Shown: piece by piece, positions 10,919 to 40,424 of the stretch
How the letters are laid out: each line of letters starts with the position of its first letter
Numbering within the stretch: position 1 is the first letter of the stretch
Origin: Vicinamibacteria bacterium
GTDB taxonomy: Bacteria; Acidobacteriota; Vicinamibacteria; Fen-336; JAGNNV01
Direction of reading: 5' to 3'
Assembly (NCBI GenBank): GCA_017990495.1
Contig: JAGNNV010000006.1
Coordinates: 1 to 41,745 of the forward strand
DNA: 41,745 nucleotides
Program-made: the position numbers and the translations under genes
The notes under the pieces: generated by a model
Told to the model about the DNA's origin: nothing
Databases searched by the model: none
The model's input: only the letters and a program-made list of their open reading frames with translations

Positions 10919-12271
10919 CTACTTGTCTTTCTTGATGAGGGCGAGCAGCTCGTCGATCTCCTTCGGGACGTCCTTGGAGAGAATCTCCGGTTCGCCGTCG
11001 GTGATGAGAACGGTGTCCTCGATGCGGATGTGGATGCGCTTGTCCTTGATTTCGATGATGGGCTCGACCGCGATCACCATGCCCGGCCTGAACGGTTCGC
11101 TCGGATCTCCCACGTCGTGCACGGACAGGCCCACGAAGTGGCCGGCCGAACCGGGGCGCTGATCGGCGAAGCCCCACTTCTCGAAGATCTTTCGCCCGAT
11201 CTCCCGGGTCTGGGCGCGCGTGGCCCCCGGACGCATGGCTGCGATGATCGCCTTCTGGGCCTCGAGGTCGGCGCGGTAGGCGCGCTCCTGCAGTTCATCG
11301 AACTTGCCGGACACCGGCCAGGTCCGCGTGATGTCCATGGTCTGGTAGCCGAGCGAGGCGCCGTAGTCCATCACGATCAGGTCGCCGTCTTGAAGGGCGC
11401 GGTCATTCCGGTTGTAGTGCCAGGTGTTGACGTTCGGGCCTGAGCCCACGATGGCGGGATAGGCGTCCATTTCGGATCCGCCCCGTGCGAAGACGTAACG
11501 CGCCTCGGCTTCGAGTTCGTACTCGTAGCGGCCCGCTCTGGTCAGGGCAATCGCGCGCTTGATGCCCTCGGCGGAGAGGCGGCCGTTCCGGCGCAGGACC
11601 TCGATCTCGCGCGGGGTCTTGATCACCCGAAGCGCGTCGATCGCGGGCGAGATGTCCTTGAGCTCGAAGTGGGGATACCGCCGGCGTAGTTCTTCGACCC
11701 TCCAGGCATCCTCGGTGGGCTGGGTGCCGAAACTGGAACTCATGCGCCGGCCCGCGTGAAGCGCCTTGTCGCCGCGGCTCATGTCCACTTCGTCGCGCTC
11801 CGACAGGCGCACGTACAGCGTCTGGGGCGAGGCGTTGCGGCGGCGGGCCAGGAACTCCTCGAGATAGGGAAGGGGATGAATGGCCGAGAAACCTCGCGTC
11901 CTGGCGGCATCGGTCTCCTCCAGCCAGTTCGGCCCATCGACCTCGATCTGTCGTGGCGGTTGCTTGGGGAGGAAGAGGAACGCCTCCTTGCGGGTGGCGT
12001 CGAGGTACAGGAGGCCCGAGAGGTCTTCGTTGCCGGTCAGGTAGAAGAAGTCGTTGTCCTGACGGAAGCGCAGTCCGGGCTGGGGCATCGTCGCCGCGAA
12101 CATCAGCACCGCCGAGCCCGACGGAAGGGCGGCCATCAGCTTCGCGCGGCGTTCCGTGAATTCCTCAGGAGGATAGGTGGCGCGTTGAGCCAGAGCACTT
12201 GAGGCCGCGCTCAGGAGCAGGGCCACAGAAGCCGCCTGGACGCGCCGTGGGGACAGCAGGTTCATTCTCAT
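10919..12271 (-). CDS. Secreted Xaa-Pro aminopeptidase (peptidase M24B)
   Basis: Signal peptide AASVALLLSAASSALAQ. M24 metal-ligand context DGDLIVMDYGA, AGHFVGLSVHDVGD and IRIEDTVLIT. Confidence 0.8.
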   Translation of the reverse strand: MRMNLLSPRRVQAASVALLLSAASSALAQRATYPPEEFTERRAKLMAALPSGSAVLMFAATMPQPGLRFRQDNDFFYLTGNEDLSGLLYLDATRKEAFLFLPKQPPRQIEVDGPNWLEETDAARTRGFSAIHPLPYLEEFLARRRNASPQTLYVRLSERDEVDMSRGDKALHAGRRMSSSFGTQPTEDAWRVEELRRRYPHFELKDISPAIDALRVIKTPREIEVLRRNGRLSAEGIKRAIALTRAGRYEYELEAEARYVFARGGSEMDAYPAIVGSGPNVNTWHYNRNDRALQDGDLIVMDYGASLGYQTMDITRTWPVSGKFDELQERAYRADLEAQKAIIAAMRPGATRAQTREIGRKIFEKWGFADQRPGSAGHFVGLSVHDVGDPSEPFRPGMVIAVEPIIEIKDKRIHIRIEDTVLITDGEPEILSKDVPKEIDELLALIKKDK

Positions 12272-22860: not shown

Positions 22861-23891
22861 AGCGTCGGGCTGCTCTCATCCTGGGTGGGTTCGTCACCGC
22901 GAGCGCGGCGCTCCTTGCCCACGCGAAGTCCCTCCCCACGGTGAAGGAAACCACGGCCCGGATCGAGGGGCTGAAGGCCGAGCGGGCGCGCTTGCAGGAC
23001 GAGCTGCGAACGAATCTCTCCGCCGATGCCAGACTCGAGGACGCGCCCGAAGGAGCGGTGCTCATCGGACTGCCCGCGTCGCTCGTCGAATTGATCGTGT
23101 CGGAGGCGCTCACCGGTCCGCTCCGGAATGTGCGCCTTTCGTTGAAGGATGTGGTCAAAGTGGAGCGCAGCGACGAGGTCAAGGCCAGGACGTTTCTGGG
23201 CATGATGACCCTCGGCCGTTACGCTCTCACCGTCAATGTGCGTCAGGTCGATGCGGTGATCCGCCCGGGCAGGCCGGCTCTCACTTTCGGAGCCAATCGA
23301 ATCGGCATCGACCTGCCGGTGCGGGTGGATGCGGGTACGGTGAAGGCCAGCCTGGCCTTCAAATGGGACGGGCGACGGCTCGCGGGCGTGGTGTGCGGAG
23401 ACCTCACCGGCGATCACGATCTCCAGGCCACCGTACCCTCGGTTTCCGCGCGGCTGCGCGGTCGGTTCGACGTTCAGGCGAAGGGCGATCGGCTGATCGT
23501 CAAGCCGGTGATCGCGCCCATCCGTCTGGCTTTCCAGGTGGAGCCCCGGCAGCCCACCTGGGACTTCATCGATGACCTGATCGAGAGCAAGAACGCGGTG
23601 TGCGAGGCCGCGTTGCGCAAGGCTCAGGTGGGTCAGAAGGTGAAGGATCTCGTGGCCCGGGGGTTCAAGGTGACCCTCCCCAATACCTGGCTCCACACCA
23701 TGACCTTGCCCGCCTCTTTCCGCGATACCTTCAACGTTCAGGGCACGAGCGCTGGGGTTGCCATCACGCCCACCGGGGTCTCGGTCACGAAGACGCGGAT
23801 CTGGTACGGCGCGAACCTCAGGCTGAAGACGCAGCGTGGCCGGCCGGGGGCTTTGCCTCCACCTCGCCCCAGCACTCCGGGCCGAGAGTGA
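22857..23891 (+). CDS. Secreted protein of unknown function (paralog of the preceding lipoprotein)
   Basis: ATG overlaps the upstream stop (ATGA). Signal peptide MKRRAALILGGFVTASAALLAHA. Same order of coiled-coil then LIGLPASLVELIVSEALTGPL, compared with AIGVSEEVVRSAVSQALPIEK in the neighbour. Confidence 0.5.
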   Translation: MKRRAALILGGFVTASAALLAHAKSLPTVKETTARIEGLKAERARLQDELRTNLSADARLEDAPEGAVLIGLPASLVELIVSEALTGPLRNVRLSLKDVVKVERSDEVKARTFLGMMTLGRYALTVNVRQVDAVIRPGRPALTFGANRIGIDLPVRVDAGTVKASLAFKWDGRRLAGVVCGDLTGDHDLQATVPSVSARLRGRFDVQAKGDRLIVKPVIAPIRLAFQVEPRQPTWDFIDDLIESKNAVCEAALRKAQVGQKVKDLVARGFKVTLPNTWLHTMTLPASFRDTFNVQGTSAGVAITPTGVSVTKTRIWYGANLRLKTQRGRPGALPPPRPSTPGRE

Positions 23892-25416
23892 ACACGAACG
23901 TGGCGCCTTCGCCTGGCCCCCCGGACTCGGCCCAGATGCGGCCACCATGGGCTTCGACGATCCGCCGCACGAGAGAGAGGCCGACGCCGCTGCCCTCCGC
24001 TCCGGGGTCGAGCTTCTCGAAGATGTTGAAGATGCGTTCGCGATAGGCCGGATCGAGTCCCTGACCGTTGTCCTTCACGAAGAAGGCCCGCTCCGGCTCG
24101 GTGCGCAGCCCGATCTCCACCCGTGGCGACCTTCCCGGGACCACGAACTTGGAGGCGTTCTCGAGCAGGTTCTGGAGGACCTCGACCAATCGCCGCCGAT
24201 CGACCTTGACGGTTGGCAGACCCCTCTCCACCACCACCTCGACGGTCTTTGCGGTCAGCTGGCCCTGGACCAGTTCGATCGCTTCGTGGACCAGGTCGCC
24301 GAAAGCCGCGGCTTCCACGGGGTTCACGATCCGCCCGACGCGTGAAAGCTCGAGCAGGTCGGCCAGCAGCTTCTGCATTTTGTCGGCGGCTCCACTGATG
24401 CGCGCCAGGTCTCTCCGGATCCTCTCTGGAGCGTTCGGCCCGAGTTCGGCCCCGATCATGCCCGCGAAACCCTGGATGGTGACGAGGGGGCTCTTCAAGT
24501 CGTGCGAGACCGTGTAGGTGAACCGCTCCAACTCCGCATTTTTGCGCCCGAGGTCGGCGAGAAGTTCGCTGCGCTCCGCTTCGGCCCGCCGCAGTCGCGC
24601 GGTTTCCTCGCGCAAGGCGGCTTCGTGAGTGCGCACATCCTGCGACATGGTCCGCAGCGCGCGCGCCAGCTCGCCCAGTTCGTCCGCCGATTCGGTGGGC
24701 AGAGGGTGGTCGAGATCGCCCTGGGCGAAGGCGTTGGCCGCGCGGCTCATGTCGGCGAGCGGCCGGCTCAGGGAGCGAGACAGTCGGGAAGACGTGACCG
24801 CGCCGAGAACGGCGCTGAATACGAAAGCGATGACGAAGAGGATGAGCAGTGAAGACCGATGGCGGGTCCACAGGCTGGATGTCTGTTCATCGATACGGCG
24901 CAAGCCGGTCTGGGCCGGATCCTCGGCGAAGGTCACCGCGGCGAAACCGGCGAGGGCGCCTCCTGACTGGATGGCGAAGCGGACCTGGCGTCTTCCCGAC
25001 GCGTCGGCCAGGAGCAGCGCTCCCGAATCGATGGAAGGCCAGACCCCTTCGAGCCGATCACCGAAACTCAGCTTGGCGTCGGTGCCGTCGGTGATGATGC
25101 GGTGGTCCGCGTCCGTCACCAGGAAGTCCCGGACGGGGAGCCAGCGGCGCACCTGAGCGATTTCCTCGTCGAGACGCGCGACGTCGAGTCCGAAGAGAGG
25201 ATTGAAGAGGCGGCCGGCGAGGTACTGGGCGGTGCCGCGCAGCCGCTCTTCCTCGCTCGCGCTCTGCACGGTGGAGATGGCGTTGCGGATCTGGGTCTGG
25301 AGGATGGCGGCCTGGCGGAAGGACACGAACCCTGCGCCCGCGAGGGCGAGGGTGATGCTGCCCAGGGTGAAGGCGGACAGATACACCGCATAACGCCGCC
25401 CCAGTCCGAGCTTCAT
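23818..25416 (-). CDS. Membrane sensor histidine kinase (periplasmic domain-TM-HAMP-HisKA-HATPase)
   Basis: Two TM segments flank a roughly 150-aa loop. H-box FTYTVSHDLKSPL, N/G boxes LLENASKF, DNGQGLD and GSGVGLSLVRRIVEAHGG. Confidence 0.85.
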   Translation of the reverse strand: MKLGLGRRYAVYLSAFTLGSITLALAGAGFVSFRQAAILQTQIRNAISTVQSASEEERLRGTAQYLAGRLFNPLFGLDVARLDEEIAQVRRWLPVRDFLVTDADHRIITDGTDAKLSFGDRLEGVWPSIDSGALLLADASGRRQVRFAIQSGGALAGFAAVTFAEDPAQTGLRRIDEQTSSLWTRHRSSLLILFVIAFVFSAVLGAVTSSRLSRSLSRPLADMSRAANAFAQGDLDHPLPTESADELGELARALRTMSQDVRTHEAALREETARLRRAEAERSELLADLGRKNAELERFTYTVSHDLKSPLVTIQGFAGMIGAELGPNAPERIRRDLARISGAADKMQKLLADLLELSRVGRIVNPVEAAAFGDLVHEAIELVQGQLTAKTVEVVVERGLPTVKVDRRRLVEVLQNLLENASKFVVPGRSPRVEIGLRTEPERAFFVKDNGQGLDPAYRERIFNIFEKLDPGAEGSGVGLSLVRRIVEAHGGRIWAESGGPGEGATFVFTLGPECWGEVEAKPPAGHAASSA

Positions 25417-27597: not shown

Positions 27598-29148
27598 TCA
27601 GAGAATCTGGGCGCTTCGCTGGCCGTGCCGCGCCGGGCTCTCGGGTATGTAGACCTCGAACCGTGTGCCAAGCCCCGCGGCGCTGTCCACGAGGATGGCT
27701 CCGCCCATCCGGGTGACGATGCCGTGCACCACGGAAAGGCCTAGGCCGGTTCCCTGGCCCACCGGCTTCGTGGTGAAGAAGGGCTCGAACACACGGTCGG
27801 CGACACTTTGCGGCATGCCGTCGCCGTTGTCCTTCACCCACAGCCGCACGTGCGGTCCGGCGCGCAGCGCGGGATGCAGCAGCTCGCCTCGGGCGAGGTG
27901 GCGCGACTCGAGACCGATTTCAATGGTGCCGCCGCGTCCGGCCAGGGCGTGGCGGGCGTTGGTGAGCAGATTCAGGAGCACCTGGTGCAGATGGGTGGGG
28001 TCGGCGAGAACGGTGCCCGTGGGCTGCTTCTTCTGGGTGATGTGGATGCCCGCAGGCAGCGTGCTGCGGAAGAGGTCCAGCGTCTCGTCGACCAGCAGAC
28101 TGGGGTCGACTTCGGAGCGTCGCGACTCGTCCTGACGGCTGAAGGAGAGGATCTGCTGGACCAGTTCGCGGGCGCGATGAGCGGCCTCGCTCACCCGGTT
28201 CAGATAAGGGGCGGCCGCACTGTTGTCGGGCAACGCGTTCTGCGCGAGTTCGGCGCAGCCCATGATGGCCTGCACGATGTTGTTGAAGTCGTGGGCGATG
28301 CCGCCGGCCAGGGTGCCGAGGGTTTCGAGACGCTGCGACTGCTGGAGTTGCGCCTCGAGCCGCGCCGCCGCTTCCTCGGCCCGCGCCCGCTCCGTGATGT
28401 CGCGCGAGTTGATGATGGCGGTGGACCGCGTGTCGCCCCCACGCGCGCTGCCGATGGATTCGAGGATCCGTTCGGAACCGTCCCGCGTCCGAAGCACCAT
28501 GATCGACTCGACCGGCGTGTCGGGTCTGGCGAACACTTCGTCGATAGAGGCCCGCGCTTCCTCACGTTTTTCGGGATCGGTGAGATCGAAGACGCTGCGA
28601 CCCGTGAGTTCCTCAGCCGAGTAGCCGAGCACGCGAGCGCAGGCCGGGCTCGCGTAGCGGATGCTCCCGTCGCTGGTGAGAATCCAGATCAGATCGTGGG
28701 CGTTCTCGATCAGTGACCGGAAATGTTCTTCACGGGTCCGCAGCGCCTCCTCGGCCCGTCGCCGTTCGACGATGTAGCTCCACGTCCGCAGCGCGCGATC
28801 GACGATCTCGGGCATGCGCGCGAAACTCTCGTCGGACTTGACCACGTAGTCGAGAGCGCCCGTCTTCATGGCGTCGACCGCGACCTTTTCGTCGCCGTGG
28901 CTGGTCATCACCACCACCGCGTAAGCCGCGCGCTCCCGGCTCTCCGGCAGCAGCACGAGGCCTTCGCCGTCGGGCAGCCTCAGGTCGGTGATGACGAGGT
29001 CGGGGGGGTCGGGGTCGGCCAGAATGGCCTGGGCGGCGCGGATGGTGCTGACCCAGGTGAGATTGACTCGGATGGCGCTTCGTTCGAAGGCCCGTCGGAT
29101 CAGCTCCGAATGGGGCTCGTCATCTTCGACGAGGAGGATGCCGGGCAT
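27598..29148 (-). CDS. Cytoplasmic hybrid histidine kinase (N-terminal REC-PAS-HisKA-HATPase)
   Basis: ILLVEDD and DLVITDLRLPDGEG (REC), a PAS segment, H-box GGIAHDFNNIVQAI, and G-box GQGTGLGLSVVHGIV. I prefer the start at ATG 29146-29148; the track start at 29220 is possible. Confidence 0.85.
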   Translation of the reverse strand: MPGILLVEDDEPHSELIRRAFERSAIRVNLTWVSTIRAAQAILADPDPPDLVITDLRLPDGEGLVLLPESRERAAYAVVVMTSHGDEKVAVDAMKTGALDYVVKSDESFARMPEIVDRALRTWSYIVERRRAEEALRTREEHFRSLIENAHDLIWILTSDGSIRYASPACARVLGYSAEELTGRSVFDLTDPEKREEARASIDEVFARPDTPVESIMVLRTRDGSERILESIGSARGGDTRSTAIINSRDITERARAEEAAARLEAQLQQSQRLETLGTLAGGIAHDFNNIVQAIMGCAELAQNALPDNSAAAPYLNRVSEAAHRARELVQQILSFSRQDESRRSEVDPSLLVDETLDLFRSTLPAGIHITQKKQPTGTVLADPTHLHQVLLNLLTNARHALAGRGGTIEIGLESRHLARGELLHPALRAGPHVRLWVKDNGDGMPQSVADRVFEPFFTTKPVGQGTGLGLSVVHGIVTRMGGAILVDSAAGLGTRFEVYIPESPARHGQRSAQIL

Positions 29149-29195
29149 GTGGGGCGGGCGGCGGTGGGACCCGGTGTCCTGACCGAAGCGAGGCC

Positions 29196-29636
29196 CTACG
29201 GCCGTGGCGATTGATTCCAAGTGAACCAGTAGAGTCCGAGTTCCTTCATCAGACCTTCGAAGCTCAACAGGTCGAGGGGCTTGACGAGGTAGCTGTTGGC
29301 GTGCCGGAGATAGGCCTGGGAAACGTCGGGATCGGCGGCGGAGCTGGTGAGGATGACGACCGGTATGGTCTGCAGCCGCGGCTCTGACTTGATCTCCGAG
29401 AGTACGGTCATGCCGTCGACCCTGGGCAGGCGCAGGTCCAGGAGGATCAGGTCAGGGCGTGGACTGGTGGCGGAATCGGCGTAAAGCCCCCGCTGGTAAA
29501 GATAGTCAAGAGCGGATTCGCCGTTGTTGATGTGGGTGATCCGGCACCGCACCGCCTGGCTCATCAGGTTCCGTCGGACGAGCTCCGCATGATCCTCGTC
29601 GTCTTCGACGAGAAGAACCTCGATCGTCTGCGTCAT
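29196..29636 (-). CDS. Stand-alone CheY-like response regulator
   Basis: VLLVEDDEDH, DLILLDLRLPRVDG, VVILTSS and YLVKPLD. The start is ATG 29636 or TTG 29648. Confidence 0.8.
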   Translation of the reverse strand: MTQTIEVLLVEDDEDHAELVRRNLMSQAVRCRITHINNGESALDYLYQRGLYADSATSPRPDLILLDLRLPRVDGMTVLSEIKSEPRLQTIPVVILTSSAADPDVSQAYLRHANSYLVKPLDLLSFEGLMKELGLYWFTWNQSPRP

Positions 29637-34284: not shown

Positions 34285-35148
34285 TTAGACCGTGGCTTCG
34301 GTCGCGGCTGCCGCTGCCGCAGCAGCGGTGGCCGCATTGGCCGCAGCCGCAGCTGCCGCCGCGGAGGCCGTGGCCGCGGAACGAGCCCGCGCCGTAGCCG
34401 CCATCTCGGCCGACTTGGCCTCGCGAAGGGAACGGCCGGCGATGACCGCGTCGGCCATCTTGCTGGCGAAGAGGCGGATGGAGCGAAGCGCGTCGTCGTT
34501 GCCGGGGATCACGTAGTCGACGAAGTCGGGATTGCAGTTGGTGTCGACGATGCCCACCACGGGGATGCGCAGTTTGCGGGCCTCGGCGACGGCAATGGCC
34601 TCGTTCTTCGTGTCGACCACGAAGATGACGTCGGGCAGGTTCTTCATGTTGCGGATGCCCTTGAGGTTCTTGTCGAGCTTCACCTGCTCCTTGGCGAGGC
34701 CGGCGAATTCCTTCTTGGTGAGCCGATCCTGACGGCCCTCGGCGAGCATCATCTCGATCTGCTTGAGACGGTCAATGCTCTTCTTCACCGTGGCGAAGTT
34801 GGTGAGCAGGCCGCCGAGCCAGCGCTCGTTCACGAAGGGCATGGAGCAACGGACCGCTTCTTCCGCGACCACATCCTGGGCCTGACGCTTGGTGCCGACG
34901 AAGAGAACCACACCGCCCGAAGCCGCCACGTCGTGCGCGTAACGAAGGGCCTCGCCGAACATCGCCTGGGTTTTCTGCAGGTCGACGATGTAGATGCCGT
35001 TGCGTTCGCCGAAGATGTATTCGCGCATCTTGGGGTCCCAGCGGCGGGTCTGGTGGCCGAAGTGGACACCGGCTTCGAGAAGGTCCTTGATGTCCACCAT
35101 TGAGATGGACGGCACGGCAATCTGCGGAACGGACGGGGTTGTTTCCAT
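34285..35148 (-). CDS. rpsB: 30S ribosomal protein S2 with Ala-rich C-terminal tail
   Basis: [19 protein letters not shown] and [12 protein letters not shown]. The tail reads [31 protein letters not shown]. An alternative ATG lies at 35100. Confidence 0.93.
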
Positions 35149-35598: not shown

Positions 35599-36036
35599 TT
35601 ACTTCGACTTCACGGTGATGGTCTGCGGGCGCTGCGCGGCATGGCGATGCGCGCTTCCGGCGTAGACCTTGAGTTTGGTGTACATGGCGTTGCCGAGTTT
35701 CGTCTTCGGCAGCATGCCCTTGATCGCCTCTTCCACCGCCTTGACCGGGCGCTTGGCCAGAAGGTCCTTGGCCGGGGTTTCGGTGAGGCCGCCCATGTAG
35801 CCGGAATGGCGGCGGTACATCTTGCCTTCCAGCTTGCGGCCGGTGAAGGCCACCTTGGCCGCGTTCACGATGATCACGTGATCGCCGGTGTCGAGGAAGG
35901 TCGTGTAGGTGGGCTTGTGCTTGCCCGCGAGAAGGCGCGCGGCCACGGTCGCGAGACGGCCGATGACGACGTTCTCGGCATCCATCAGGAACCAGTCGCG
36001 TTTGATGTCTTTTGCGGAAGGGACGAAGGTCGCCAT
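35599..36036 (-). CDS. rplM: 50S ribosomal protein L13
   Basis: DWFLMDAENVVIGRLATVAARLLAGKHKPTYT and YRRHSGYMGGL. Confidence 0.95.
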   Translation of the reverse strand: MATFVPSAKDIKRDWFLMDAENVVIGRLATVAARLLAGKHKPTYTTFLDTGDHVIIVNAAKVAFTGRKLEGKMYRRHSGYMGGLTETPAKDLLAKRPVKAVEEAIKGMLPKTKLGNAMYTKLKVYAGSAHRHAAQRPQTITVKSK

Positions 36037-36163
36037 TTGAGTAGTTCTGGGGTCTTTTTAGGTTCGAAAGGGGTTTTTCGATGAGTGAGCGGCGGGCCGC
36101 GGCGAGGGTCCTGAGCAGGCCCGCGCGGGAACTTGCAACTTTAGGTGAGGGGTCTTGAGCTTG

Positions 36164-37183
36164 TCAAACCGGCAGCGTGGAAAGCTCGAGGCCTCGGGCG
36201 CTCATCCGGTCTTTATAACGACGCAGGGTTTTCTCGACGTCGAGGATGAGTCCTTCGGTGGTGCTTTCCAGCTGATCGAGAACGCGATGCTGCTGGGTGA
36301 AGTCGGGCTTTTCGACCTCGCGGGAATCGGCGAGCATTTCGAGGCGCGCGCCCCATTCCATCAGACCCTGAAGGCTGGCCTCGGAGTGGGTGTCGAGGTG
36401 CGACGGCTCGGTTTTGCCGAGGTCGAGACCGCGCATGAAGGCGCCGATTTCCCTCCGGCGGGCGCGGGCGCGCTCGATGAGGCTTGCGAACGTCCGCTTG
36501 GTCGGGATCACCCGATTGGGCGGAGCCGCTTCGAAGGCGCCCCGGAACCGCTCTTCGGCGATGCGGGCGAGTTCGAGCAGTTCCCGTTCGCTCGGCGACG
36601 GCAGGAGCTTCTCGGACTTGGCCCGGATTTCCGCGGCGGCCACGTCGAGGGATTCGCGCACGCAGGCCACGGCGCCGCGGAAGAGATACTGGATCTCTTC
36701 ACGCGACTTGAAGCCGTCGGGAAGGAAGACGGTGCCGGCCGCGAACTGGGGGCCGCGGGTGGGCTTGGGGGCCTTGACCTTGCGCCCGGGCTTTTCGGCC
36801 TTGACCTTGCCTTTGGGAGCCACCAGGAGGTTGAGGCCCTTGCCCTTCCCTCCAAGGGCATCGCCGCCCTGGCCGTCGAGGCCCTCTTTCATCTGCCGCT
36901 TGAGGGCGAGGCGCGCTTCCTTGGCCAGGGCCTTGGCCGCGATCTTCGCCTCGAGTTTGGCCTTGGCCCGTTCGATTCTCATCAGCTTCTTCTGGGCTTT
37001 CTCGGCGGCTTTAGCCGCGGCCCGAGCCGCGGATTTGTCGGCGGCGCTGGGTTTGGCGGGCTTCTTGTCCGCCACCTTCACCTTGACGACCTTGGGGGCA
37101 GGGACTTTGACCGCCTTCGCCTTGGCCGGTGGAGCCACGGCCTTGGGGGCGGGCTTTGCTTTGGGTTTCGTTTTGTTTGGCAT
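36164..37183 (-). CDS. Lys/Ala/Pro-rich (histone H1-like tail) protein with unassigned alpha-helical C-terminal domain; candidate partner of the Top6A-like protein
   Basis: ATG lies 19 nt after the top6A-like stop. The first ~150 aa read PKAKPAPKAVAPPAKAKAVKVPAPKVVKVKVADKKPAKP and KAEKPGRKVKAPKP. The last ~190 aa are non-repetitive and predicted helical. I find no Bergerat/GHKL N-box or DxGxG motif. Confidence 0.6.
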   Translation of the reverse strand: MPNKTKPKAKPAPKAVAPPAKAKAVKVPAPKVVKVKVADKKPAKPSAADKSAARAAAKAAEKAQKKLMRIERAKAKLEAKIAAKALAKEARLALKRQMKEGLDGQGGDALGGKGKGLNLLVAPKGKVKAEKPGRKVKAPKPTRGPQFAAGTVFLPDGFKSREEIQYLFRGAVACVRESLDVAAAEIRAKSEKLLPSPSERELLELARIAEERFRGAFEAAPPNRVIPTKRTFASLIERARARRREIGAFMRGLDLGKTEPSHLDTHSEASLQGLMEWGARLEMLADSREVEKPDFTQQHRVLDQLESTTEGLILDVEKTLRRYKDRMSARGLELSTLPV

Positions 37184-37202
37184 GGCGGTTTTGCCCTTTT
37201 TC

Positions 37203-38309
37203 CTAGGGAAGGAACGACTTCGGATTCTTGAGCTTCTCGGGCAGGTAGGTGTCCATGACGAAGTTCAAGGCGTGTTTGGCGAACGCCTGCTGCTCGGCGC
37301 GTTTGCCCATCTTGAGGAGTTGCTCGAAGGCCTTGGCCCAGGCCGGATAGTGCTGGAAGAACGGGTCGTTCTTGAGCGCGTCCTTGGCCCGCTTGATGTC
37401 GACGTCCTTAAGAGGATGGGTGGGGAGGTCGTAATCGATGATGTCCTGCGGCGTGACCCCGAGGAAACGGGCCTGGGGCACGCAGAAGAACTCGTTCAGG
37501 TGGGCGTTGTTTCCGGAGCCGACCTTGAGGGTGCGATAGATGTTGGCGATTCCGTACGGATCGCAGTCGACGAACACGTAGACCGGGATCTTCTTCTCGT
37601 CGGCCAGGCGGCGGACGAAACGCCGCACCGCGCGAGTGGGCACGCCGGCCATGGAGACGAGGATGCAGTTCTCCTTCGCCCAATACTGATGGCGGTTGAG
37701 CCGGTCGAAGATACCGCCCGTTTCAATGGCGAGGATGAACTTGGCCTTGGTCTTGAACTGGAGATGTTCGACTTCGGGCGGGATGCCGTAGGAGCCTGAG
37801 CCGAACTTGGTGCAGTCGATCTCGATGGTTTTGGTCGAGCCCGGTTCCTCGCGGTCGACCACGATGAGGTCGCCGGCGACCAGACCGCCGTGTTCGTCGG
37901 GGGTGAAGCAGAGCTGCTCCTTGTTGACCCCGAAAAGCGCCTCGACGTCGTCGAGGATGGTGTCGGACTCGGTCTGCTCGTCGCAGCGCGCGTCGCCCCA
38001 GTTCTTCGTCTGGTAGTAGGCGTCACGTTTGGTGGCCCGTTCGTCGGTGTCGATCATCTGCTTCGACAACGAGATCATGCGCATGGTCTGGGCGAAGGTC
38101 TTGACCGTGGAGACGGTGAGGGTGCGTTCCTTCTTCTTGCCCAGCATCTCGAAGTGGCCTTTTTTGGCCGAGTAGCGAACGTTCGCCAGAGTGCGCAGGG
38201 GGAACTTCATCTCGGGCTTCTTGAGCCCGTTGATCTTCGACTCGACTTCACGAGCCGTCCCGACGATTTGTGAGATGACGGGCGAGACCGCCGCGCCGGA
38301 TTTAGCCAT
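37203..38309 (-). CDS. top6A: DNA topoisomerase VI subunit A / Spo11-type protein
   Basis: 368 aa. 5Y-CAP catalytic tyrosine context ATKRDAYYQ, Toprim Glu ILAIETGGIF, Toprim DxD VFVDCDPYGIANIYRTLKVGS, and C-terminal FLGVTPQDI and KRAEQQAF, all in the order found in archaeal Top6A. Confidence 0.8.
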   Translation of the reverse strand: MAKSGAAVSPVISQIVGTAREVESKINGLKKPEMKFPLRTLANVRYSAKKGHFEMLGKKKERTLTVSTVKTFAQTMRMISLSKQMIDTDERATKRDAYYQTKNWGDARCDEQTESDTILDDVEALFGVNKEQLCFTPDEHGGLVAGDLIVVDREEPGSTKTIEIDCTKFGSGSYGIPPEVEHLQFKTKAKFILAIETGGIFDRLNRHQYWAKENCILVSMAGVPTRAVRRFVRRLADEKKIPVYVFVDCDPYGIANIYRTLKVGSGNNAHLNEFFCVPQARFLGVTPQDIIDYDLPTHPLKDVDIKRAKDALKNDPFFQHYPAWAKAFEQLLKMGKRAEQQAFAKHALNFVMDTYLPEKLKNPKSFLP

Positions 38310-38332
38310 GCTTTGGAGCCTAACTATGGGTC

Positions 38333-38363
38333 AAAAAATAAAATCCCCGCGTCACGCGGGGAT
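38333..38363 (-). terminator. Intrinsic terminator (minus strand) downstream of the ytxH-like gene, 23 nt upstream of the top6A-like start
   Basis: The minus strand reads ATCCCCGCG-TGA-CGCGGGGAT followed by TTTATTTTTT: a 9-bp GC-rich stem with a U-rich tail. Confidence 0.75.
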
Positions 38364-38444
38364 TCGTCTGCGATGAGACTAAACGTCGCGAAACGGGCTT
38401 CGGCCCGCAGCTTAACACGCCGCGTGCTTCAGCCTGCCTCGCCT

Positions 38445-38958: not shown

Positions 38959-39354
38959 ATGGCTCAAGAACCCGGCCGGACCTTGATCGACGCCGACACC
39001 TCGATCGACGGGAAGATTCAAGGCAAGGATGCGACGATCGCGGGCAAGTTCAAGGGGGAGGTTCACCTCTCCGGGGCCCTCGTGATCACGCCCTCCGCCA
39101 ATGTCGACGCCACGATCCAGGCGGCGTTGGTCGAAGTCGGCGGCGCCTTCTCCGGCAAGATCACCTCGCGCAAGGTGGTGGTGCTCGAAACCGGCAAGGT
39201 GACGGGGACCCTCGACGCCGGCCAGTTGGTGGTGCGCGAGGGCGCGGTACTGAACGGGCCGGTGGCCGCGGGCAAGTCGGCCTCCGGGGCGCCTGCGGCA
39301 GCTTCCGGCTCTACCGCACCCGCGCCCGCCACCGCTCCGGCCGCCAAGTCTTGA
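38959..39354 (+). CDS. Bactofilin-family polymer-forming protein
   Basis: Repetitive beta-helix pattern IDGKIQGKDATIAGKFKGEVHLSGALVITPSANVDATIQAALVEVGGAFSGKITSRKVVVLETGKVTGTLDAGQLVVREGAVLNG, plus an Ala/Pro-rich tail. Confidence 0.8.
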   Translation: MAQEPGRTLIDADTSIDGKIQGKDATIAGKFKGEVHLSGALVITPSANVDATIQAALVEVGGAFSGKITSRKVVVLETGKVTGTLDAGQLVVREGAVLNGPVAAGKSASGAPAAASGSTAPAPATAPAAKS

Positions 39355-40424
39355 GACTGAGCGAACTCGCCCCTCGACTGGGCGGAGAGGTCCGCGGTGA
39401 TTCCGCGGTCGAGGTGAGCCGCGTGGCCCCGCTCGAATCGGGAGAGCCAGGGTCCATCTCCTTCTTGTCGCACGCCAAGTACCGCCCCCAGCTTCAGTCC
39501 TGCCGGGCCAGCGCCCTGATCGTGAGCGATCCCTCCCTGGTCGGCTCCGAATCGGGCGCCCCCTCTTTTGCCGCGATCATCGTGGTGAAGGACGCCTACG
39601 TGGCCTATGCCCGGGCCGCCGCCATCCTGCACCCCGGGGTTGTGGAGACCCCCGGCGTTCACCCGAGCGCCGTGGTCCATCCTTCCGCCCGCATCGACCC
39701 CTCCGCCCACGTGGGGGCTTTCGTCTCTGTGGCCGAAGGCGCGTCGGTCGGCGCGCGGTCGGTCCTGCATCCCCACGTCGTCCTCTATCGCGGGGCCGCG
39801 GTGGGCGAAGACACCACGCTGCACGCGGGAGTTTCGATCCGCGAGGGTTGTTCCGTGGGTAACCGGGTGATCATCCATAACAACTCGGTGATAGGCGCGG
39901 ATGGTTTCGGTTTCGCGCGGGACGCGGACGGCCGGCACGTGAAGATTCCCCAGGTGGGCATCGTGGAGATCGGCGACGATGTCGAGATCGGCGCCTTATC
40001 CGCGGTCGATCGGGCCTCGATGGGGGCCACCCGGATCATGCGGGGCACCAAGATCGACAACCTCGTGCAGGTGGGCCACAGCGTGGAGATCGGCGAGGAC
40101 GGGATCTTGTGCGCTCAAGTGGGTGTGGCTGGAAGCACGCGCATCGGGAATCGCGTCATCCTCGCCGGGCAGGTAGGGGTTGCGGACCACGTCACGGTGG
40201 GCGACGACGTCATCGCCAGCGCCCAGTCCGGCCTCCACGGGGAAGTGCCTTCGAAGGCGCGCATGGCGGGCAGCCCCGGCTACGACGCGCGCACCTGGCT
40301 CAAGGTGAGCGCGGGCCTTAAGCAGTTGCCCGATCTCATCCGCAAGGTGCGCGACCTCGAGGCCCGGCTTCAGGATCCGGCGAAGGCCGGCTCCGACCCG
40401 AAGGCCGGCTCAGAAACGACGTGA
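39351..40424 (+). CDS. lpxD: UDP-3-O-acylglucosamine N-acyltransferase
   Basis: N-terminal LSELAPRLGGEVRGD...ISFLSHAKY, then hexapeptide repeats including GADGFGF and KIPQVGIVEIGDDVEIGA. TTG start overlaps the bactofilin stop (TTGA). Confidence 0.9.
   Translation: MRLSELAPRLGGEVRGDSAVEVSRVAPLESGEPGSISFLSHAKYRPQLQSCRASALIVSDPSLVGSESGAPSFAAIIVVKDAYVAYARAAAILHPGVVETPGVHPSAVVHPSARIDPSAHVGAFVSVAEGASVGARSVLHPHVVLYRGAAVGEDTTLHAGVSIREGCSVGNRVIIHNNSVIGADGFGFARDADGRHVKIPQVGIVEIGDDVEIGALSAVDRASMGATRIMRGTKIDNLVQVGHSVEIGEDGILCAQVGVAGSTRIGNRVILAGQVGVADHVTVGDDVIASAQSGLHGEVPSKARMAGSPGYDARTWLKVSAGLKQLPDLIRKVRDLEARLQDPAKAGSDPKAGSETT

Follow-up and report, generated by a model that had tools for sequence, protein, structure and literature searches.

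The contig JAGNNV010000006.1 of a Vicinamibacteria bacterium (Acidobacteriota) raises the question of what a gene for subunit A of DNA topoisomerase VI (top6A) does where no gene for subunit B (top6B) lies near it. The stretch analysed, which is 41.7 kb long and is called the window below, contains two consecutive open reading frames (ORFs) on the minus strand: top6A, encoding 368 amino acids (aa), and a gene encoding 339 aa, here named P, which starts 19 nt after the top6A stop codon and whose product begins with a Lys/Ala-rich, histone-H1-like tail (Table 1). An earlier note on this DNA had proposed that P stands in for the missing ATPase subunit. The reading that best fits the evidence, in which confidence is somewhat better than even, is that the lineage possesses a canonical A2B2 topoisomerase VI and that P is a dedicated accessory or adaptor factor of this enzyme.

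Subunits A and B of the lineage's topoisomerase VI

The 368-aa ORF is, by its sequence, unambiguously a Top6A/Spo11-family protein, and the identification made in the earlier note is upheld by Pfam (E values down to 2e-60) and by Top6A of M. jannaschii (PDB 1D3Y; E 1e-110). The Pfam matches are to TOP6A-Spo11_Toprim (E 2.2e-60, over the full length of the model, 1-170/170), TP6A_N (2.5e-14) and Topo_VI_alpha (1.5e-13), and the NCBIfam PRK04342 models reach 4e-138 yet stay under their equivalog cut-offs. The segments containing the catalytic Tyr, the Toprim Glu and the DxD motif are all aligned with those of the M. jannaschii protein. The 5Y-CAP/winged-helix domain is present with its catalytic Tyr (KRDAYYQ, in which KRDAYY is aligned to REAYY of M. 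jannaschii Top6A), the Toprim domain conserves the metal-binding Glu (AIETGG, within ILAIETGG) and the DxD (DCDPYG, within VDCDPYG), and the motif KRAEQQAF is also found. The window's Top6A shares its three Pfam domains, catalytic Tyr, Toprim Glu and DxD with the archaeal and bacterial enzymes (1D3Y, 2Q2E and 2ZBK) and is closest to the Methanococcales type (1D3Y). One metagenome-assembled genome (MAG), JANODX01, carries two copies of top6A(-P) (L083 on contig 276 and L093 on contig 284, with Top6A 97% and 91% identical to that of the window), which could be due to a mixture of strains in the bin or to duplication.

No top6B was detected in the window by tblastn with Vicinamibacteria Top6B (best E 0.5), and the HATPase_c matches in the ten largest ORFs, which were those scanned, belong to HisKA histidine kinases; the absence that the earlier note had reported is real. 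Top6B is encoded elsewhere in the lineage. A distant homologue of P (50% identity in the C-terminal domain) directly follows a top6A 80% identical to that of the window, and the same locus encodes a canonical 575-aa Top6B (HATPase_c, HATPase_c_3 and Topo-VIb_trans) 2.2 kb upstream. Vicinamibacteria-type Top6B proteins are abundant and, among the 120 matches listed, the two with source names are both annotated 'DNA topoisomerase VI subunit B' and come from Vicinamibacteria MAGs.

GTDB species genomes were scanned with a concatenated Top6A and Top6B query, and the resulting 80 loci were then subjected to ORF and hidden Markov model scans. Four arrangements were distinguished. Type a, in which top6B is followed by top6A-P after a gap of 0.5-2.2 kb, occurs in ten genomes (L001/L016, L014, L015, L017-L021, L056 and L060), among them L019, a chromosome of 4.09 Mb, and L056, a contig of 5.1 Mb; the top6B product contains HATPase_c and Topo-VIb_trans. 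Type b, to which the window belongs, consists of top6A-P with flanks that lack top6B (about 13 genomes). Type c, with top6B and top6A adjacent or nearby and without P, is found in Polarisedimenticolia, Eisenbacteria, Planctomycetota and archaea, and type d is a solitary top6A without P, found in Brocadiaceae and two Acidobacteria MAGs. At the solitary loci (L077, L079, L080, L082, L084-L086 and L088 in Brocadiaceae/Brocadiia, together with L064 and L065), neither top6B nor P is present in the available flanks, the full 6 kb of which exist for only some of these loci. Solitary top6A genes in anammox Planctomycetota and in two Acidobacteria MAGs indicate that separation of the A and B genes is not unique to the window's clade.

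The MAG JBGATM01 (GCA_044229175.1) holds both parts of the enzyme. Its contig JBGATM010000020 carries a locus collinear with the window (identity of 85% for ytxH, 94.8% for top6A, 89% for P, 95% for rplM and 98.5% for rpsI), and contig JBGATM010000014 carries an intact top6B. When Top6B and A-P were matched by accession, only the product of the latter (P0206) put the two loci in one assembly; P0222 and P0053 come from different assemblies. JBGATM01 Top6B matches Top6B of M. mazei with an E value of 8e-154, and the N-box, DxGxG, G2-box and switch-Lys segments are conserved. As in known topoisomerase VI, the B subunit of the lineage comprises GHKL, H2TH and transducer regions with ATP-binding boxes and the switch Lys. 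It lacks the C-terminal extension of the M. mazei subunit (the aligned part stops at residue 508 of the 621-residue chain), and its N-terminus is extended by a Pro/Ala-rich segment that contains a Q[LM]xLF motif. The system also differs from known topoisomerase VI in that the genes for A and B lie at unlinked loci in the window's clade and a third gene, P, always follows top6A. Where top6B stands alone, the context FHA/TIG - NamZ - EamA - top6B - DinB recurs in CAXWJH01 and in metagenome contigs. The ATP-binding motifs of the lineage's Top6B are intact, and the enzyme would perform ATP-dependent strand passage. It is highly probable that the window's top6A serves a canonical topoisomerase VI whose B subunit is encoded elsewhere.

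The proposal that top6A and P form a B-less, Spo11-like module that cleaves or relaxes DNA, with P replacing Top6B, drew on a window of 41.7 kb devoid of top6B and on the position of P, where a partner subunit could be expected. At the level of the lineage this proposal is refuted, and the chance left to it is very slight. Ten related genomes carry a canonical top6B next to A-P, and in the syntenic MAG it is found on a separate contig. P has neither a GHKL nor a transducer fold, and window-type and B-adjacent Top6A share 76-80% identity from end to end, the N-terminal region included. The earlier note was accurate on the tight pairing itself (coordinates, spacing and the Lys/Ala-rich partner) and mistaken in putting the partner in the place of a GHKL Top6B. 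Among the outcomes that it had named as fatal to its proposal was the combination of a canonical top6B elsewhere, which has now been found, with a partner family that is widespread and unlinked to top6A, which is not what was seen.

A basic tail and a probable UPF0149-like domain in protein P

P consists of a basic tail and a folded domain. Its first 150 aa contain 23% Lys, 23% Ala and 10% Pro and have a net charge of +32, and its last 189 aa have a net charge of -1. In 110 homologues the tail measures 80-183 aa, with a net charge of +18 to +65 (mean +31) and a composition of 30% Lys and Arg, 24% Ala and 13% Pro, and its sequence drifts while its charge persists. This suggests that the tail binds DNA non-specifically. 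Lys/Ala/Pro-rich, H1-like tails are found in mycobacterial HupB, at the C-terminus of actinobacterial TopA and in Pseudomonas AlgP, which the tail of P resembles in composition and charge, not by homology. Other topoisomerases carry basic C-terminal tails, to which the tail of P can also be likened.

The family to which P belongs is small. P matched no Pfam or NCBIfam family, Pfam was null in all 60 members, and an exhaustive profile search of 1.84 billion cluster representatives found the family in 60 clusters only. All 210 homologues are 'hypothetical proteins' that originate in soil and sediment metagenomes or in MAGs of Vicinamibacteria, and an identical P protein is encoded on at least 22 contigs with the same gene order. 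The C-terminal domain (C-domain) has 49 invariant columns among 60 sequences, including the motif ERARxRRREIGAFxRGLDxGxTExSHxDxHxEAS. The AlphaFold2 (AF2) model of this domain is an all-alpha bundle of seven helices (predicted local distance difference test, pLDDT, 84.5; predicted template modelling score, pTM, 0.84). The best Foldseek matches in the PDB were 4gyt (lpg0076; E 0.037, template modelling (TM) score 0.46/0.51) and 1izm (YgfB of H. influenzae; TM-score 0.50/0.57).

Neither Top6B, TOPOVIBL nor Rec102 was among the 50 Foldseek matches listed, none of which reached E <= 0.001. Pfam, a profile search of the PDB, the AF2 model and Foldseek led to the rejection of P as a Top6B, transducer, TOPOVIBL or Rec102 protein. 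The earlier note had seen no Bergerat or transducer features in the partner, which the Pfam result and the all-alpha model confirm; the transducer-like interface that it considered is not borne out, the C-domain being a UPF0149-like helical bundle. Like the partners in TOPOVIBL, Rec102-Rec104 and MTOPVIB systems, P is the partner gene of a Top6A/Spo11-family protein and lacks a working ATPase, but it has no GHKL- or transducer-like fold and it coexists with a true Top6B.

The relationship to UPF0149 was reached through a bridging family. Two divergent matches of the P profile search end with an SEC-C zinc motif, and the UPF0149+SEC-C family to which they led aligns with the P C-domain in hhalign at 99.4% probability (E 4e-21, 165 columns). 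SEC-C is present in 12 of the 13 members of this family and a sub-threshold Pfam UPF0149 match in 9 of 13 (best E 4.5e-5); P0308 scores 21.1 bits against the UPF0149 cut-off of 25. As judged from its sequences, the bridging family has the architecture of YecA, and its AF2 model (pLDDT 84.6) finds the same top PDB entries (4gyt, E 1.4e-3; 1izm, 0.07). None of the 60 P members scores above the gathering threshold of PF03695 (UPF0149), and direct sequence comparison of P or its relatives with YgfB structures gave matches to the SEC-C motif only. It is concluded from profiles and models that the C-domain of P is probably a divergent UPF0149-like domain, related at the level of a remote superfamily and below that of Pfam-family membership. 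The modelled seven-helix bundle of P resembles that of about 180 aa in YgfB, the N-domain of YecA/AscA and MtvS1 (1IZM and 4GYT); P differs in that TM-scores are only about 0.5, an H1-like tail takes the place of SEC-C, and its gene is linked to a topoisomerase gene, unlike that of any described member. The relative P0320, a UPF0149+SEC-C protein, is encoded in an unrelated gene context. Two further divergent P-like proteins (P0288 and P0298, JGI sample 3300041967) are without the long basic tail, one of them having a TonB_C-like N-terminus, and the gene of each overlaps the end of an upstream gene of 385-405 aa that has no Pfam record.

Characterised UPF0149 members are protein-binding adaptors. 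YgfB, a seven-helix UPF0149 protein, binds the antiterminator AlpA directly (PMC9998450). MtvS1 and YgfB have been proposed to bind the coiled coil of the RNA polymerase beta' subunit (PMC13627669), and the N-domain of YecA has chaperone activity (bioRxiv 10.1101/2020.07.21.215244).

Linkage of P to top6A and the possible roles of P

Every P-bearing locus has top6A immediately upstream on the same strand. Among about 25 distinct loci, the two genes are separated by 4-49 nt with a single exception (L031, 120 nt), in which the start codon was probably miscalled. In a neighbour-joining tree of Top6A, all P-linked sequences form one clade, to which the P-less pair L064/L065 is sister. The B-adjacent arrangement is basal inside the P-linked clade, and in at least two or three independent events A-P became separated from B while A and P never parted. 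P is absent from topoisomerase VI loci in all other lineages sampled. The ancestral order was probably top6B - ytxH - top6A - P, and top6A is a chromosomal, vertically inherited bacterial topoisomerase VI gene.

P is a real gene under selection. In comparisons with five relatives, the ratio of nonsynonymous to synonymous substitution (dN/dS) was 0.07-0.09 for the P C-domain, 0.02-0.095 for Top6A and 0.22-0.32 for the P tail. Purifying selection on the C-domain is as strong as that on Top6A, and the tail is constrained, more loosely than the C-domain. Genomic evidence for a functional tie of P to Top6A, which consists of gene linkage, is strong, and the strict linkage of P with top6A makes a connection in function with topoisomerase VI the best reading. 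The chances that P is a factor dedicated to topoisomerase VI are judged to be even.

In the proposed mechanism, Top6A and Top6B would form the usual A2B2 enzyme for ATP-dependent strand passage, with Top6B supplied from an unlinked locus in the window's clade and from beside top6A in sister clades. P would be a third, Vicinamibacteria-specific component that is co-transcribed with top6A. Its UPF0149-like domain would most likely dock on topoisomerase VI through physical contact with A or B, and of the two, A is favoured as the docking site, since P is never parted from top6A. The polycationic H1-like tail of about 125 aa would bind DNA non-specifically and might raise the local affinity for DNA, assist in the capture of DNA crossings, or anchor the enzyme on the nucleoid or some other machine. 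A parallel exists in plants and other eukaryotes, in which the small basic DNA-binding proteins RHL1 and BIN4/MID are needed with topoisomerase VI A and B (PMC11302465). RHL1 and BIN4 are reported to be absent from bacteria and archaea, for which 'alternative accessory proteins' have been speculated (Allen & Maxwell 2024, PMC11302465). By analogy, P might be such a protein, as it too is basic and genetically tied to topoisomerase VI; it differs in that its association with the enzyme is deduced from gene linkage alone, and no kinship with RHL1 or BIN4 in sequence or fold is expected.

Several observations weigh against an accessory role for P in a canonical enzyme. The association of P with the enzyme appears as gene linkage only, and the adjacency could reflect co-regulation alone. 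The known partners of UPF0149 proteins act in transcription or translocation, and none is a topoisomerase. The enzyme does without P in archaea, Planctomycetota, Eisenbacteria and the neighbouring classes of Acidobacteriota, and P is thus not generally required. The window's own top6B was not seen, and the apparent link to it runs through a relative (95% Top6A identity) and through metagenomic binning. A comparison of P-linked with P-less Top6A, made in search of a P-specific docking site, gave 17 scattered group-specific positions. The P-less sisters L064/L065 share at least four of these residues (D96, Q100, T101 and C109), so that the positions characterise the clade and are uninformative about docking of P.

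These points bear on two other roles for P. H1-like tails are typical of nucleoid proteins, and P could be an autonomous nucleoid or transcription protein, a YgfB-like adaptor of RNA polymerase for instance, that is only co-regulated with top6A. That the Top6A comparison gave no evidence of an interface would be in keeping with such a protein, as would the action of characterised UPF0149 proteins on the transcription machinery (PMC9998450, PMC13627669). This role is considered possible but distinctly less probable than an accessory one, since P is confined to the topoisomerase VI-bearing clade and accompanies top6A without exception in about 25 species-level genomes and at least two genomic contexts, and a general nucleoid protein is not expected to track one gene so strictly. 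Alternatively, P could be a chaperone, assembly factor or safety catch for Top6A that stays outside the working enzyme, a role regarded as rather unlikely. P would then keep the A dimer, which has no C-gate, inactive or soluble on DNA until Top6B from the distant locus joins it. In YecA, the UPF0149 domain acts as a chaperone (bioRxiv 10.1101/2020.07.21.215244), A and P are kept together while B is unlinked, and the tight A-P spacing suggests co-translational pairing. However, P is equally present where B lies 0.5-2 kb away, and a pure chaperone would not need a conserved long polycationic tail. The preferred reading remains that of an accessory factor of a canonical topoisomerase VI.

Genomic setting, regulation and targeting

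Table 1. Features of the top6A-P locus and other genes of the window discussed in the text.
Feature	Position	Strand	Basis
Aminopeptidase P gene (Peptidase_M24 + AMP_N)	10919-12271	-	
HATPase_c match, HisKA histidine kinase	23818-25416		
HATPase_c match, HisKA histidine kinase	27598-29220		
Ribosomal protein S2 gene	34285-35148	-	
rplM	35599-36036	-	
Predicted sigma-70-like promoter, TTGACA-18-TAAAGT	36138-36167	-	consensus scan, 1 site against 0.4 expected
P, 339 aa	36164-37183	-	
P C-terminal domain, aa 141-339, seven-helix, UPF0149-like	36164-36763	-	AF2, Foldseek, hhalign
P N-terminal tail, aa 1-140, Lys/Ala/Pro-rich, histone-H1-like	36764-37183	-	composition, charge
top6A, DNA topoisomerase VI subunit A, 368 aa	37203-38309	-	Pfam, PDB match
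Conserved non-coding element of ~92 nt between ytxH and top6A	38330-38421	-	terminator scan, sequence comparison
Hairpin + U-tract within the element	38365-38341	-	
ytxH-like gene, 86 aa	38445-38705	-	Pfam YtxH, E 1e-11
Bactofilin gene	38959-39354	+	
lpxD	39351-40424	+	

Downstream of P, on the same strand, lie rplM, rpsI, rpsB, tsf and pyrH, the names of which are taken in part from the Pfam labels of the syntenic locus L005. On the upstream side of top6A are the ytxH-like gene, a bactofilin gene and lpxD. The ytxH-like gene, whose product has one transmembrane helix and a GxETRRR motif, precedes top6A in all window-type loci. ORFs resembling the YtxH N-terminus, matched by N-terminal sequence and without a Pfam scan, are also found upstream of top6A in four B-adjacent loci (L014:7999-8232, L018:8409-8621, L021:7775-7990 and L060:7439-7744). 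The last 4 nt of the bactofilin gene fall within the start of lpxD, and the pair is also adjacent in L005, which suggests that the two form a conserved unit. The product of the ribosomal protein S2 gene ends with an Ala-rich low-complexity extension of about 45 aa. An aminopeptidase P gene lies 25 kb away from P; ygfB, the UPF0149 prototype, is adjacent to pepP in E. coli, and the co-occurrence of P and aminopeptidase P in the window is probably a coincidence.

A role in defence was dropped on the evidence of PADLOC, PHROGs and the gene context (ytxH, bactofilin, lpxD and ribosomal-protein genes), in agreement with the core-chromosomal setting that the earlier note had described. PADLOC found only a weak, partial similarity of Top6A to the JetD Toprim domain (E 3e-6), and P had no match in PADLOC or PHROGs. 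An identity as Wadjet/MksG (JetD) or another defence nuclease with a Top6A-like Toprim was also rejected, as neither the JetD architecture nor JetABC neighbours are found at the locus.

The spacer between ytxH and top6A contains a conserved element of about 92 nt, which begins with an extended -10-like sequence, CGTGnTAnnCT (TGnTAnnnT), in which the T, A and T positions are invariant and the inner ones vary. It continues with a leader of about 75 nt and an 11-bp hairpin with a U-tract, ending 21 nt before the top6A ATG. The element is near-invariant in 18 loci, the flanking genes of which have a dS of 0.6-0.8, and all nine exact-pattern matches in Joint Genome Institute (JGI) metagenomes lie inside the ytxH-top6A spacer. 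It is absent from type-a loci. Rfam gave no match above threshold (the rnk_pseudo leader came closest, with 31 bits where 55 are required), and no covariation was found in the element, all stems being invariant. A small leader peptide was considered and rejected because 1-nt indels between loci break the frame. By its sequence, the element is a candidate promoter and attenuator-type leader for top6A-P, or a candidate small RNA. A sigma-70-like promoter, predicted from a consensus match only, overlaps the P stop codon 100 nt ahead of rplM-rpsI. No terminator-like site was found after P in the terminator scan, so top6A-P transcripts may read into rplM-rpsI.

The Top6B of the lineage carries a motif that may bear on targeting. 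Among Vicinamibacteria-type Top6B proteins, 92 of 111 have Q[LMP]xLF at the opening of a Pro/Ala-rich N-terminal extension of 60-100 aa, with the variants QLDLF, QLGLF, QMDLF and QPSLF (survey of proteins P0121-P0240 and loci L014-L021, L025-L048, L094 and L102). Over all the groups with the extension, its length is 50-170 aa. The motif is also present in Top6B of P-less Acidobacteriota and of some Planctomycetota and deltaproteobacterial MAGs, and it is absent from the archaeal and Eisenbacteria Top6B sampled. The consensus for binding the bacterial beta sliding clamp is QL[SD]LF, which the Top6B motif fits, making it a putative clamp motif. Among the papers searched, none connects topoisomerase VI with a clamp-binding motif.

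Taken together, these features would allow a more specific, tentative scheme, which is judged less likely than not. P would be a stoichiometric third subunit and the convergent counterpart of RHL1/BIN4, its YgfB-like domain clamping Top6A or bridging it to RNA polymerase and its H1-like tail holding DNA, while Top6B would link the enzyme to the beta clamp through its Q[LM]xLF motif and the attenuator-like leader would control top6A-P. If true, this scheme would explain by what means a type IIB topoisomerase, acquired horizontally from archaea, has been integrated into the replication and transcription machines of bacteria.

The absence of a nearby top6B does not make a bacterial Spo11 of top6A, and a tempting misreading of such loci is thereby corrected. 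What topoisomerase VI does in bacteria has yet to be settled, and an accessory factor is known for no prokaryotic topoisomerase VI. The clamp-like motif of Top6B and the conserved top6A leader are leads on the targeting and regulation of the enzyme. P, which is strictly linked to top6A, strongly conserved, and composed of a YgfB-like domain and a polycationic tail, is a concrete candidate for the first accessory factor of a prokaryotic topoisomerase VI.

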